Shown: positions 21,001-33,000, counted from the first letter of the stretch. The stretch: DNA of 64,000 bases from Gammaproteobacteria bacterium (GCA_028279275.1 JANQOB010000006.1:188799-252798), one strand, 5' to 3'. A program made the numbers.

Positions 21001-24000
21001 TCCGTTCTCTGCATATTTTGCAATTCGATTATTTTTTATAGATATCTTATTTCTTTCCAAATGGGATGCAGGTTGGAGACCCTGGAAAATTAAAGCATTG
21101 CTACAAAGCATATATGCTCCTGTAAGATTTTTAAAACTTTTTCCTTATCACATTTATGGATTATTGCGAAGTATCTCAGCTAATACAAAAGCTCTTGAAA
21201 CTTGGGATCTAATTTTTGCCAAAATTAAATCAACTAAACTTGCCTTTCCACGTATACCTAATAAATCACTAATTTTTTTCCCGATAAAAAAGATTAACTC
21301 TCAATGGAATTTTTATATAAAAAATAAACTATTTAGGTTTTTGACCCAATTTTTTATAGAAGTGCGTTTAAAGATAATTTCCATATGGAGTTTTTATAAA
21401 AAAAGTAAATTATTTAAGTTCTGGAATCAATTTTTTGCTGAAGCACGTTTACTGAAGCAGGATCAACCAGACTCGATGCTAATAATTATCAAGATTCTGC
21501 CTTATCACATTTATGGCTTTGTCAGAGAATGCTTAGAAGGCACTAAAGCTCTCTATTATTGGGATCGTTTTTTGAAAAAAATACGCGAAAATGATAAAGA
21601 TCGATAAAGCATCAAAACGCAATTTGATTTTTCTTCTTGTCGCACAAGCAAGTGCTGCACTATTAGGTGTATTTGCATTTACACGAATTGCTCGAGAACT
21701 TCCTGTAATAGAAATGGGAAGATTTGGCTTTGCAGTCTACTCGACAGCGTTATTCGGACTCCTTGCAGAACTTGGTATTCGTTTTGTAGCAATGAAGGAA
21801 ATAGCAACCAGCCCGGAAAATGTTTGGCACTATCACCGCCATAGCGCATATATTCGCTGGTTGCTCGCAGCTCTTTCACTGATCCTTTTATCAGTAGTTG
21901 CATTAACCCCCGCATGGCGCGCGGAGTGGAATTTACTCATGCTAGGTGGTTTGCTCGCCATCACCCAATTTGGATCAGATCCTGCAACTTGGGTATTTTT
22001 TGGTCGCGGTCGTATTGATATTGGAGCAACAATTTTGATTATTGACCGTTTTTTATATCTCGTTGCCATACACATAGCTGCACAATGGTCGCCAAGTGCT
22101 GAAAGTTTAATAATAGGAGCTGTAACAGTAAATTTATTAAGAATGACTTTTTCCGCATGTTGGGTTCGTATGCAAATTAAAATTCAACCTAAAATCATTT
22201 GGGACAAATCATTATTTAGATACTTAATTGTCGATGGCGCAGCTATTGGTATTGCTATTTTGACTTTCTTTACCTATTCACAAATTACAATTGTTTTAAT
22301 GAAATCTTTCTCAACTCCAGAGCAACTAGGATATTATGCAATGGCATTTGGAGCCATGAGTGTTCTATTAGTAATACCAACATCATTAATAATGGCGCTC
22401 TTCCCCATTATGGCAACAACACTTGGAAAAAGTATTCAAGCTAATCGAGATCTTTTCTTCTGGTTTACTCGTTTAATTATGTTAGTCGCTGTGCCTATTG
22501 TGATCGTACTTCTTTTATTCGCTGATGATATCTTGGCAATTTGGATGGGAGCTAAGTATACACCTGCAACATTAGAATTGAAGATATTAGCCATTGCTCT
22601 AGTCTTTTCAGCAGCAAGTTTTCTTTATCGTATGTTTTTATTCGCATCCGAAAAATATAAGACTGAAATAACCATCAATGTTTCAGCAATTTTGGCCACC
22701 ATAATTATTGGAATTCCAATATGCAAAATTTATGGTGGAATAGGTGTAGCAATAGTTTATGTTTTCATTGAAGCAAGTGTAGCTATAACTAAAGCTGTAC
22801 TTACATGGTATAAGTCAAGCCACTCACTATCTTTTATTTCTCAAAAAAAGACTCTCTAAATAGCCTCTATTTTATTGGCGCGCCCGGAGAGATTGATTCG
22901 TGTCATCCATGACACTCACATTCGCTTCTCTCATGCGCCGCTAACGCAACGTCCAAATTTGCTGTCCTGCAAATTTGTCGAACTCTACCGTTCGAATAAC
23001 TCAAGATATGCCACTATATTAATAGCCTAAAAGGCTATAAATTTAGTGGCGCGCCCGGAGAGATTCGAACTCCCGACCACCTGGTTCGAAGCCTAAGCTA
23101 ACACGCTAAACCCTTCTTAACACTAGTACCTACTAGTAACTCTTAAGTTCTTGTATTTAAAAATAAAGTTTACCAAAGCGTACAATGTAAGTATGCTTTT
23201 TTAAACGCTGCTAACTACTGCCAAATGAAAAATTAGTAAGCGTTTTAGTAAACTTTTTTACGGAGGAAATAATGCCTAGACACAAGGAAGTTGATGTTCG
23301 GGTGCAAGACATACAACCTACCTTAAATGATAAGTCATTAATGGCTCTTCCAGTCCTCGAAAGGACATATGAGAAGTGGTTTTCTGGCAATAAGGGTTTA
23401 GGTATTTGTGTTACACCCAAAGGAACCAAAACGTGGTTGTTACGTTATCGACGCGACTCAGGACAGCTCATTAAAATGTCGCTTGGGCGATATGTTAGTG
23501 GGGAAATGCCAAGATCTCGCATCATTCCTATTAAAAAAGCCAAAGAACTTTACTTAGAAAATCGCTTACAAATCCTAAAAGGTGAAGACCCTGCCCAACT
23601 AGTTAAAGCCAAGAAAGAGCAAACTCGTAAACAATTAGCTAACGAAGCTGGAGCAATTACATTTGCTGGTTTAATTGAGGAATACATAGAACGTCACGCA
23701 AAACAGAAAAAGAAGTCATGGCGCAATGATGAATATTGTTTAAATAAGGAATTCCTCCCACCACTCGGAAATAGAAAAGCAAAAGACGTTACTCGTGCAG
23801 ATATCCGCAAAGTGTTAGACAAGATGGAGAATCGAGGTGTAACCACAGGCCAAAATCGAGCTTTAGAAATTGTACGCAAGATGTATAACTGGGGAATGAG
23901 TGTTGACCTAGTTGAACACAATCCTTGTACAGGAATAGAAAAGCCAGTGAAGGAAAAAGTTGGAGAGCGTTGCTTAGACGAAAAAGAAATTCGAAAACTG

Positions 24001-30000: not shown

Positions 30001-33000
30001 TGTTAAAGAAAGACGAATAGAGAAAAGAGAATGGTCTGGAGATTGGGAATATTTTTTAGCGCATGACTTTGGATCATCCGCTCCCTCCGTTACGTATTGT
30101 ATTGCGCGTAGTCCCGGTGCGGAGCATGAAGGCCGTTATTTCCCCCGTGGTTCCTTAATTCTGTTTGACGAATTAGCAACTAACAGCAATGAACAATTGA
30201 ATATCGGTCTAGGTTGGACTGTGCCTACGTTAGCTAAAGAAATTGTAGGTATGTGTAGTAGATGGAACATTGAACCTAACGGTATAGCGGACGATGCAAT
30301 ATTTAGTAATCACGGGAGTGAAGTCGGAACGATAGCAGACGAATTTAGAGATGCAGGTGTGTACTTTGAACCCGCAGGTAAAGGATCACGAATTAACGGG
30401 TGGGAAAAGATGAGGACGTTGTTAAGCCAAGCAGGCTCCCCCGATAAACCCGGACTTTATATTAGCCGTAAGTGTTCATATTTCTGGGCGACTGTTCCAT
30501 TTTTGAGCAGGGATATTAAGCGCATAGAAGATTTGGATTCTAACGGACCCGACCATGCAGCGGACGCCGTTAGGTATGGATGCCTGCATGAAATTAACGA
30601 AGTGAATGAAGTACAAATTACAACTTGGATTTAACTAGAGGAGAAAGACAATGGAAAAACTTACACACATAAACCAATTAAAAGCAGCTAGCGAAGGTGC
30701 GACGAATTTAATGAACGAAATTAATTCTAGTTTAGAAGAATTAGCGCCGAAGTTAATAGAATTAAGAGTGAATAAAGATGGAAAGTTCAGCCAAGATTAC
30801 ATCACTAAAGAAACTATGAAGTTGAATCAGGCTGCTAAAGATGGGCCATTGACTAATTTAGGTAAGTTAAAAGCGATGCACGAACAAGTTAATAGTTCTG
30901 CCTCCCACTTTACTAAAGATGCAATATTAAGCAGGCAACAATACTTTGATGAATTCAAACCTGAACATGCGCCTGTCACCTCTGGCGATAAGATGACTGC
31001 GGAATTGTTAAAGTTGCAACACAGCACAGCTGAAGACACAAGGCGAACACGATTAATTACTGAGATAGGCAGGCTACCCAACGCAGCGATAGCTACTGAA
31101 ATAAAATCTGCGCTTGAAACTAATGACTTGATGAAATTAAGCGTAGCCATACAAGAACACCGCGTACGAAATTATGGTGAAGACAGTGGTTCCAGTAAAG
31201 CATCAGTTAAAGCGATAGATGATGCGATGAAAGCTTTGGACTTTCCCGAATTTAACTCTGCACAGACATATATTAGCAATGTTGAAGAAGCATACAGAGA
31301 AGCGAGCATGACTTATGACAAAGTAGTTAAAGGCAAGAACACAGCTGTAGACAAAATCGCTTTGGGACTAGTTAAGGGCGAAGACGGAATGAATGTTAAG
31401 AAGGTGGCTTGAGTAAAGAATAAATGCTGCTTTTAGCAGCATTTATTTAATCTAAACTATTAACAAACCCAACATACCCGTTTATATTAAAATTTATGCG
31501 TCACTTTAATATTAATTTTACGTATCGCTGGGCGACCACTTCTGGCTCTATCATTAACCCATTCTCCTATTATTTCTCCATTTCTACCTGTGTATTCTTC
31601 ATTATTGCGAGTAGTATTAATTGTATATGTAATATCATAAAAGCCCTCTAACTCTCCCATAATATACATTCGCAGCCCTACGATAGATAACCTGGCATGC
31701 ACATTTACTCCTGTATGCGCTGGAACAGGATTAGCAACAACATGTCCTGGAGGCGCATGAAATCCACCACCCGAGCCAGGCGCCATAAATCTACATACTT
31801 GATAAAAGATTTTTAACCTTGGTAGGTGATCGTTTACAGTAATCTGGATATTGTTTGCCCTTCCAAAACTATCAAGTGTTTCACCTCCCTTTCCTTCATA
31901 ATAACTACCTAAGCACCATAATTTTACGTTTATATCTAATGGATAATTTGGCAACCTAATAGGTTTAGGGTATTTTGTATCAACATCTAATTCTGGAATT
32001 TCAGGGGGAGATTCCCCGACATTTGATTCTCTTTGTATTGACTTAGATAGTTTATAGGCTTTTTTAATCTCACTATCTAGCTTTATTAATGTTTCATTAG
32101 AATTTTTTATAAATTCTCCTGCATCCTCTTCTTTTGCAAATTGCTTATAAGAGTTTATAGCAAATTGAAAATCGCTTATTCTTTCTTCTAGACTATTAAT
32201 AAGATCGTAAAGTGTTTCAAGCGCGATTCTTTGTTCTTCTAAATCAGGCATTTCCTCAATATCAGGATTATAATCAGCTGATGAATATGCTCTATGTACT
32301 GGATATAGAATAGTTTCTGGACCATTTCTTACTTCAGTTGGAAAGTTATATGCATAGTCGACTAAATCATTTATAGGAATTTTACTATTCCCTCCAGCTT
32401 TATAGATTGAAACATTGGTTGATTTAAACTTTTTGATTTTTTCAACTCTTTTACTTAATTCTGCTTTACCAGAAAAGTCACCAGTAACCCCACCATATTC
32501 TAATGAGTCTTTTATTTCTTTACGCTCAGTAGTACTGCGAGTATGTATAAACATAGATGCATATAATTCCCCGCCCGTAGACATATCTTTGACATACGTA
32601 TTTCCATAAGTTTCAAGAAATTTTTGTGTTTTCCCATTTAGTAGTAGCCATTCAGGGCCACGTTCTCTACTATCGAGACGCGGATTTGGTAACGAATAGA
32701 TATTTTGAATAAATACAACCCTTAACATAATACATAAACGATACTCTGTAATTGCTATACTTCTAAAGTAGTCGCGTTTAGCATCGAAGCCACCCAAAAA
32801 ATCTGGGAAAGAAGCTTCTACAGAAAATTTCATGTACTCTCTTAGTGATTCATAATTCTCTATAATTTCAATGTTGTATATCTCACGATTTCTTGGAATG
32901 ATATCTGGTTTACCCAACACACCCTTAGACTCATTTGCGCCAGTTATTGTATTGTAACCATGCCCAAGAATATCTGATGGAGGTGTATCAAATATTCCAT

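Follow-up and report, generated by a model that had tools for sequence, protein, structure and literature searches.

The 64,000-nucleotide stretch analysed here (hereafter, the window) belongs to a Gammaproteobacteria bacterium (GCA_028279275.1, JANQOB010000006.1:188799-252798), whose genome has a low GC content (~36%) and encodes a GspD secretin. It contains a 14,057-bp mobile island (23047-37103), a putative phage satellite that encodes its own small and large terminase subunits (TerS and TerL). The island is inserted in a tRNA-Arg(TCG) gene (37057-37133, minus strand), which was predicted by ARAGORN and Rfam and is the sole match of the Rfam scan, and it is bounded by a 47-nt direct repeat (D1) of the 3' end of this tRNA, from the anticodon loop to the 3' terminus. 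Its length follows from this duplication, the left attachment site (attL) lying at 23047-23093 and the right one consisting of the 3' 47 nt of the tRNA gene itself (37057-37103); the original prediction, which had closed the island at 31412, therefore placed its right boundary too early. The two copies of D1 are identical at 45 of 47 positions, and the two mismatches form a compensatory pair in the T stem (G-C versus A-T). The attL copy is 100% identical to the tRNA-Arg allele of a relative, L003, which carries an island at the same tRNA-Arg with a TerL 90% identical to that of the window; this identity suggests that the island came in with the tRNA end of another host. A pattern search found exactly three copies of the att sequence in the window versus 0 expected. 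The third is a 19-nt remnant of the tRNA-Arg 3' end (22876-22894; repeat family D2), 171 bp to the left of attL; the sequence that precedes it is partly similar too, and it was probably left behind by a previous integration or by a tandem array.

The gene order of the island (integrase, hypothetical protein, Toprim primase/helicase, hypothetical protein, AlpA-like regulator, iterons, a terS with a GTG start, terL and a further hypothetical protein) was borne out by the open reading frames (ORFs) and the profile searches as it had been predicted originally. The terminase module is encoded on the plus strand. Its first gene (28750-29196) codes for a TerS-like protein of 148 aa with an N-terminal helix-turn-helix (HTH), which matches the terminase small subunit family phrog_309 (E = 4e-8); the same family is matched by 12 of the 16 members of this TerS family (best E = 6e-17). 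TerS homologs lie immediately upstream of TerL in 44 related loci, while the word-indexed protein search gave one homolog only and the TerS profile matched only HTH proteins among PDB sequences. The second gene (29153-30634) encodes a TerL with matches above cut-off to Terminase_3 (PF04466) and Terminase_6N (PF03237), as well as to phrog_2 (E = 4e-28). It scores 38 bits against TIGR01547, the equivalog family of PBSX-type TerL (cut-off 105), and is thus assigned to a divergent subfamily; a search against PDB sequences gave no match. The true start of terL is probably the TTG codon at 29183, giving a protein of 483 aa, since this codon lies behind a GAGGTG ribosome-binding site, overlaps with the stop codon of terS and is the start of the 90%-identical homolog. 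The overlap also suggests that terS and terL are translationally coupled. In an alignment of 22 sequences (that of the window and 21 homologs), the Walker A motif GGGRGGAKS (G44-S52), the Walker B motif VDEAGQ (D142/E143) and the acidic residues of the nuclease (D305, D380/D381 and D467/D471) are all invariant, so that the full-length TerL with intact Walker and nuclease motifs proposed at the outset stands. Indeed, the protein has the organization that defines a tailed-phage terminase, namely an N-terminal ATPase and a C-terminal RNase-H-like nuclease.

Directly after terL, a 253-aa protein (Hyp253; 30651-31412, plus strand) is encoded, which appears as a conserved partner of terL and has no family match in Pfam or PHROG. 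The word-indexed protein search found one close homolog, in L003 (70% identity); there are also two remote homologs of 255 and 259 aa (P0130 and P0131), the former encoded directly downstream of the C-terminus of a TerL from the same clade. An AlphaFold2 model built from a four-sequence alignment (mean predicted local distance difference test score, pLDDT, of 81) is entirely helical, and its structural matches are to generic three-helix bundles only. Scanning metagenome and viral contigs for patterns taken from the Hyp253 alignment gave nothing, and by hhalign the protein is unrelated to the helical proteins of ~235 aa (F22, F34 and F18, which are mutually related by the same method) that occupy this position in other elements. 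The original prediction had named one finding that would make the island a degraded prophage end, namely that this ORF is a piece of a portal or capsid gene; judging from the all-helical model, the generic bundle matches and the TerL linkage of the remote homolog, it is not such a fragment. Furthermore, no capsid, portal, protease, connector or tail family was detected in any ORF of the island with Pfam, PHROGs, NCBIfam and PADLOC, in keeping with the lack of capsid and portal genes noted before; in related loci, the same searches did return phrog_247 (major head protein), phrog_206 (scaffold) and phrog_145 (portal) matches as well as a neck protein.

The left part of the island encodes proteins for integration, regulation and replication as well as two ORFs without family match: (i) a P4-type tyrosine integrase of 436 aa (23272-24582, plus strand), with Phage_integrase, Arm-DNA-bind_3, Phage_int_M and phrog_1 matches, (ii) a 174-aa ORF in a variable slot beside int (24585-25109, plus strand), without family match in Pfam, PHROG, NCBIfam or PADLOC and sharing only 24% identity with its positional counterpart in L003, (iii) a replication protein of 674 aa (25090-27114, minus strand) that combines a Toprim-type DUF3854 domain (PF12965) with a RepA-like AAA_25 domain (PF13481) and matches PHROG primase/helicase families, (iv) a 185-aa ORF (27086-27643, minus strand) without family match that is conserved in L003 (81% identity), and (v) a 70-aa AlpA-like HTH regulator or excisionase (27694-27906, minus strand), matching HTH_17 (E = 1.2e-4) and phrog_66 (E = 0.005). 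The genes at the position of the last one in relatives match Phage_AlpA/HTH_17. In L003, the replicase gene is broken up into two reading frames of 312 and 361 aa (L003 positions 5905-7960), which could be a genuine frameshift or an error of the 4.5x long-read assembly.

Between alpA and terS lies an intergenic control region of 843 bp (27907-28749) with iteron clusters (28109-28223 and 28348-28539), AT-rich tracts on their flanks, putative divergent promoters and a 39-nt inverted repeat (I1). Within 456 bp of it are found 11 of the window's 37 copies of CGACC/GGTCG, where about 0.26 copies of CGACC would be expected, together with six copies of GCAACC/GGTTGC. The iteron blocks are nearly identical in L003 whereas their flanks have diverged, and the region is considered a putative origin of replication. 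A promoter-like site is present at 28691-28718; the promoter and terminator scans gave no excess over shuffled controls. The -35 element of this site is overlapped by a copy (28687-28695) of the 9-mer AAAGTTTAC, all five copies of which in the window are located inside the island (1.45 expected per window). Two others lie between attL and int (23165-23173, plus strand; 23248-23256, minus strand) and two in the right arm of the island (36979-36987 and 36990-36998), so that each island end has two copies and the putative terS promoter region one. This layout is repeated in L003 (positions 4009, 4093, 9511, 17576 and 17587). These copies are candidate arm-type sites of the integrase or AlpA sites, and it may be that the att arms and the packaging operon are both targets of a single protein, either Int or AlpA.

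The comparison of the window with L003 by BLASTN separates a conserved backbone from a variable segment. Homology spans int, the replicase-alpA block and the block from the putative origin through terS and terL to the Hyp253 gene, ends at 31415 and is found again at 36691-37134, which corresponds to the right arm (36691-37056) and the tRNA; between this arm and its counterpart at the right end in L003 the identity is 92%, despite the different cargo. The 5.3 kb in between are unrelated in the two islands, that of L003 encoding PAN_4, Exo_endo_phos and other proteins, and by this comparison the segment serves as a slot for exchangeable cargo, similar to the defence hotspots found in P4 and in phage-inducible chromosomal islands (PICIs). 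In the window it encodes an AbiD/Abi_2 abortive-infection protein of 298 aa (33181-34077, minus strand; Abi_2 E = 1e-55, PADLOC AbiD E = 1e-75, phrog_2158) and, beside it, a 528-aa protein (31487-33073, minus strand) with no Pfam, PHROG or NCBIfam match and a marginal PADLOC match, which is a candidate new defence gene product. These are followed, at 34549-36686 on the plus strand, by a SRAP peptidase (34549-35136; E = 2e-40) and four small ORFs of 137, 155, 75 and 115 aa without family matches. In the backbone, the ratios of nonsynonymous to synonymous divergence (dN/dS) between the window and L003 are 0.07 for int, 0.07 for terS, 0.10 for terL, 0.11 for the Hyp253 gene and 0.18 for the 185-aa ORF, with a synonymous divergence (dS) of 0.5-1.8; these values point to strong purifying selection on terS, terL and the Hyp253 gene.

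More than 1,200 homologs of the window TerL were found by protein search at E <= 1e-5. Apart from the 90%-identical relative, the top 120 share 53-60% identity with the window TerL and originate from Alpha-, Beta- and Gammaproteobacteria, including Sphingobium, Tsuneonella, Caenibius, Novosphingobium, Noviherbaspirillum and Sedimenticola; TerLs of this kind are also carried by metagenome-assembled genomes (MAGs) of Desulfobacterota. A search of genome contigs with the single TerL returned two distant MAG loci only. Ten chromosomal contexts were compared (the window, L002, L003, L004, L005, L006, L009, L092, L093 and L094), among them elements of a Desulfovermiculus MAG (L002), of Tsuneonella (L004; tRNA-Thr, 9.15 kb between repeats), of Sphingobium (L005; tRNA-Lys, 8.1 kb), of Noviherbaspirillum (L006; tRNA-Ala) and of Sedimenticola (L009; tRNA-Met, with a serine recombinase). 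All ten consist of 7-14 kb and encode a recombinase, an AlpA/HTH regulator, a replicase and a small TerS-like ORF followed by TerL, the two overlapping in the contexts examined, and in none of the ten was a portal found within reach. They are usually bounded by a tRNA, host genes start right after the element, and the att repeats are intact wherever they were detected (window, L003, L004 and L005). The type of replicase varies among them (AAA_25, DUF927, PrimPol-D5_N or PriCT_2).

In IMG/VR, 43 loci (L010-L052), mostly on contigs of 4-17 kb, encode a TerL with at least 47% identity to that of the window. A portal is present in three of them (L036, L037 and L049), where it follows TerL together with a head-tail adaptor, and these three look like real phages. 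Three other contigs are regarded as closed units on the basis of their terminal direct repeats, and all three encode an integrase, a replicase, TerS and TerL and lack a portal: L051 (7.87 kb) has an AAA_25-type replicase and a 233-aa helical protein, and a scaffold and a major capsid protein (MCP) are additionally encoded by L022 (9.68 kb) and L030 (9.84 kb). The clade delimited by at least 47% TerL identity thus mixes elements with terS and terL only, often accompanied by a helical protein of ~235 aa (F22, F34 or F18), and elements with scaffold and MCP; the helical protein and the scaffold/MCP pair did not co-occur in the clade. In the TerL tree, the two kinds of elements alternate, implying that the scaffold/MCP pair was gained or lost repeatedly. 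Outside the clade, the outgroups at 39-40% and then at <=35% identity are phage loci with portal, scaffold and capsid; the only phages found with a related TerL (39-52% identity) carry a portal of the phrog_145 type, and the best of 50,697 phage records reaches 33% identity to the window TerL. An island group was defined on this basis by a recombinase, a regulator, a replicase and terS-terL within 7-14 kb, no portal, and a TerL at least ~47% identical; the window belongs to it, the other loci considered for it being L002-L009, L092-L094 and L010-L052. The group is widespread and apparently unclassified.

Several further arrangements were observed around these terminases. A scaffold (phrog_206) and a major head protein (phrog_247/Gp13-like) are encoded along with TerS and TerL, without portal, in L022, L030, L028, L047, L094 and others. 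Some portal-less members of the clade also encode a Neck1/tail-completion-like protein (phrog_169; L010, L013, L038 and L040/41) or a tail-assembly-like protein (phrog_32; L013-L019, L025 and L028) beside the terminase, which may point to further modes of contact with the virions of a helper. At a greater distance, IMG/VR contigs of 9-13 kb (L059-L071) encode a tyrosine integrase, a replicase of ~800 aa, a conserved 251-aa protein (F24) and a TerL ~33% identical to that of the window, again without portal, and may represent an independent TerL-carrying satellite lineage.

Taken together, these data make it likely that the island is a PICI-like satellite whose own TerS and TerL package it into the procapsids of a helper phage through the helper portal, and the island is probably a complete, intact element that is still mobile. 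The proposal that it is a distinct type of satellite bringing its own packaging ATPase, one of two options offered in the original prediction, gains support from the occurrence of compact integrative elements of this kind in many unrelated bacteria, from the purifying selection and from a TerL clade far from sequenced phages. The life cycle can be outlined from gene content, and beyond the observed genes and att sites its steps are conjectural. The P4-type integrase would insert the island into the 3' half of tRNA-Arg(TCG), probably with the help of the AlpA-like protein and of the AAAGTTTAC copies near either terminus. Upon helper infection or induction, the AlpA-like regulator would turn on excision and the divergent operons, by analogy with PICIs of Gram-negative bacteria, and the element would be amplified by the Toprim/AAA_25 replicase, starting at the iteron-rich origin that separates alpA and terS. 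The island TerS would then recognize a site on the island DNA, and TerL could cut the concatemer and pump the DNA into helper procapsids, docking on the helper portal. As even the MCP-bearing relatives have no portal, the whole clade would have to depend on that of a helper; the phages with the nearest TerLs all carry phrog_145-type portals, which suggests a tailed phage with such a portal as the helper. Terminase_3/6N enzymes are typically headful packagers, and a full-size head would consequently take up the 14-kb unit in multimeric form, unless heads of reduced size are made. The helical 253-aa protein may assist this piracy, speculatively at this very step. The slot between its gene and the att-proximal arm, for which exchange is seen relative to L003, would carry AbiD and the accessory genes along.

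Gene sets of known satellites were compared with Pfam and PHROG profiles, and the island was found to fit none of the PICI, capsid-forming PICI (cf-PICI) and P4 types fully, as the claim of an atypical satellite implied. In SatelliteFinder, the PICI set comprises an integrase, a regulator, a primase-replicase, an optional capsid-morphogenesis gene and terS, and TerL is a marker of cf-PICIs, along with capsid, portal, protease, adaptor, connector and HNH genes; a survey of September 2026 likewise counts the lack of a TerL among the traits of classical PICIs. The island shows four of the five features of the classical PICI core, namely integrase (Phage_integrase, Arm-DNA-bind_3 and Phage_int_M; phrog_1), primase-replicase (DUF3854 and AAA_25 by Pfam/PHROG profiles), small terminase (phrog_309) and, with a sub-threshold match, a putative regulator, and departs from the fifth, the use of a helper TerL. 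It shares with classical PICIs, such as the Staphylococcus aureus pathogenicity islands (SaPIs) and EcCICFT073-type elements, the order int-regulator (AlpA-like)-primase/replicase-origin-terS, a size of ~10-15 kb, insertion at tRNA or specific att sites and the accessory or defence cargo after the packaging genes. However, these elements use the helper TerL, redirected by their own TerS or by Rpp, and often remodel the capsid, whereas the island brings a TerL; its intact TerL excludes a strictly classical PICI.

With cf-PICIs (prototype EcCIEDL933), the island has in common an integrative lifestyle, int, an alpA-like gene, a replicase and both TerS and TerL, and cf-PICI TerLs likewise form a clade well apart from those of phages, an arrangement that has been interpreted as a lineage of old standing and not as prophage decay. 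In contrast to the island, cf-PICIs encode major capsid, protease, portal, adaptor/connector and HNH proteins and steal only tails. An assignment to cf-PICIs was rejected, since no capsid, prohead protease, portal, head-tail adaptor/connector or HNH match was found in the island; the portal-less relatives with scaffold and MCP (closed units of ~9.7 kb) fall outside the cf-PICI definition too. With a TerL of Terminase_3/6N (PBSX) type, no HNH partner and none of the cf-PICI structural genes, the island would have to steal whole procapsids, portal included. P4-like satellites resemble it in their P4-type integrase at a tRNA, AlpA, fused primase-helicase and defence hotspot, but have no terminase genes, rely on cos and the P2 terminase and encode sid, psu and delta; the island has its own terminase instead and no Pfam/PHROG match to sid, psu, delta or epsilon, and a P4-like satellite was rejected as well. 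PICMIs (phage-inducible chromosomal minimalist islands), virion-encapsidated integrative mobile elements (VEIMEs) and PICI-like tycheposons, which are marine minimal satellites, are also small integrative int/AlpA/primase elements, some with terS or MCP. PICMIs are described as minimal (int, fis, alpA and primase) with no packaging or capsid-remodelling genes, and on that description the terS, terL and 14 kb size of the island set it apart from them; for VEIMEs and PICI-like tycheposons, terS or MCP is reported and no TerL, a helper TerL being assumed. The Streptomyces satellites MiniFlayer and MulchRoom encode both terminase subunits, like the island, but they encode portal, capsid, scaffold and adaptor too, and one of them has no integrase.

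Four other explanations were weighed. The TerS and TerL genes are phage genes, the island lies at a tRNA next to other mobile DNA, and a few members of the TerL clade do have a portal after TerL (L036, L037 and L049), all of which could be expected if terS-terL were what remained of a temperate phage after deletion of its structural genes. This decayed prophage end, the second option of the original prediction, is nevertheless highly improbable: the compact gene set recurs in 10 independent chromosomal contexts of unrelated bacteria, always portal-less and with intact att repeats where these were detected, relatives assemble as closed units of 7.9-9.8 kb, dN/dS is 0.07-0.11 on terS, terL and the Hyp253 gene with intact catalytic residues in TerL, and the gene after terL is not a portal fragment. 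A satellite that once formed capsids, lost its own capsid genes and keeps its terminase by inertia, as a relic that transfers poorly or not at all, would agree with the interleaving of MCP/scaffold-bearing and MCP-less elements in the TerL tree. Yet MCP-less elements occur in many lineages and hosts, one of them as a closed 7.9-kb unit (L051), and terS, terL and the Hyp253 gene are strongly constrained despite a synonymous divergence (dS) of ~0.6-0.9 between the window and L003; moreover, the MCP-bearing relatives are portal-less too, so that the clade needs a helper portal anyway. Such degeneration is accordingly given a small probability, although a somewhat larger one than prophage decay.

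The terminase could also serve mainly for interference, the island being an anti-phage element that occupies helper portals or cleaves helper concatemers. Satellites commonly block helper packaging according to the literature, the island carries AbiD, and a preprint reports a prophage-encoded defence that targets the terminase complex. This option, unlikely as it is, ranks above the other three; the equipment of the island, a full TerS/TerL pair whose ATPase and nuclease centres are conserved together with integrase, replicase and origin, is that required for self-packaging, whereas interference would take far less. It is compatible with the satellite reading and probably a side effect of self-packaging. 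Lastly, the plasmid- or RepA-like replicases (AAA_25) and the serine resolvases of some relatives would suit an integrative mobilizable or plasmid-like element that had recruited a TerL-like ATPase-nuclease for replication, resolution or another non-virion role. However, no relaxase, oriT or conjugation genes were found in the island by Pfam and PHROG profile searches, and TerL is always paired with a TerS-like gene while many relatives add scaffold and MCP or neck genes, which ties the module to virion assembly; this explanation is about as improbable as prophage decay.

Several points weigh against a self-packaging satellite. No pac or cos site turned up in the island, in searches none of which was aimed at cos, and no helper phage was found, none being present within the window. 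TerL-portal docking is normally specific, and with only 33-52% identity to known phage TerLs the island TerL would have to fit the helper portal. The AlpA assignment of the window's own 70-aa ORF is sub-threshold in Pfam (22.6 bits against HTH_17, cut-off 27 bits). Five ORFs of the island (174, 185, 528, 137 and 155 aa) are without detectable homologs, and one of them may be a very divergent structural protein. In addition, the structure of the clade is preliminary, the ORF calls in IMG/VR contigs being crude, the clustering based on BLAST, the TerL tree obtained by neighbour-joining only and many of the metagenomic contigs incomplete.

On a broader scale, the self-packaging satellite proposed here could belong to a large, phylum-spanning satellite family defined by a privately inherited TerS-TerL pair, in which the capsid-less members practise terminase-only piracy and their scaffold- and coat-encoding sisters still take the helper portal; this extension is put forward tentatively, its chances being a little under even. 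If it is true, the helper range of a satellite would be set by TerL-portal compatibility and not by TerS-TerL compatibility, and the family would close the gap that separates classical PICIs, with TerS only, from cf-PICIs, with everything but tails. In the open-access literature, TerL has been reported only in capsid-forming satellites, where current classifications place it and on which search tools are built; no description of satellites with TerS and TerL and no capsid was found in the searchable open-access literature. A group with a terminase and no capsid or portal would represent a third packaging strategy, and such islands would be missed or mis-binned as "defective prophage" or, in IMG/VR, as a small "virus". 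They would also make the natural specificity of terminase-portal docking a testable question. Finally, with an exchangeable defence cargo, here AbiD, and a putative packaging start of their own in the chromosome, such islands could mobilize defence genes and adjacent host DNA through lateral transduction, a process shown for other PICIs.

A second island, of ~16.3 kb (37134-53433), is present on the other side of the same tRNA-Arg and is absent from L003. A 43-nt direct repeat of the 5' half of the tRNA (37092-37134 and 53391-53433) flanks this island, which encodes a 343-aa integrase (37170-38201, minus strand). The anticodon loop (TTCGAAGCC) is where the att cores of both islands adjoin, so that the tRNA gene is sandwiched between two elements, each of which duplicates a different half of it. 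This second island encodes a TerS-like protein of 99 aa (47124-47423, minus strand; DNA_Packaging_2/phrog_891), and right after it, on the same strand and within 45332-47423, a 592-aa P-loop protein with a Walker A (GIGKT) and a Walker B (VWDEA) motif. The latter has no match in Pfam, PHROG, NCBIfam or PDB; it may represent either a helicase or a large terminase of high divergence, and in the terminase case the window would contain two terminase-carrying islands at one tRNA.

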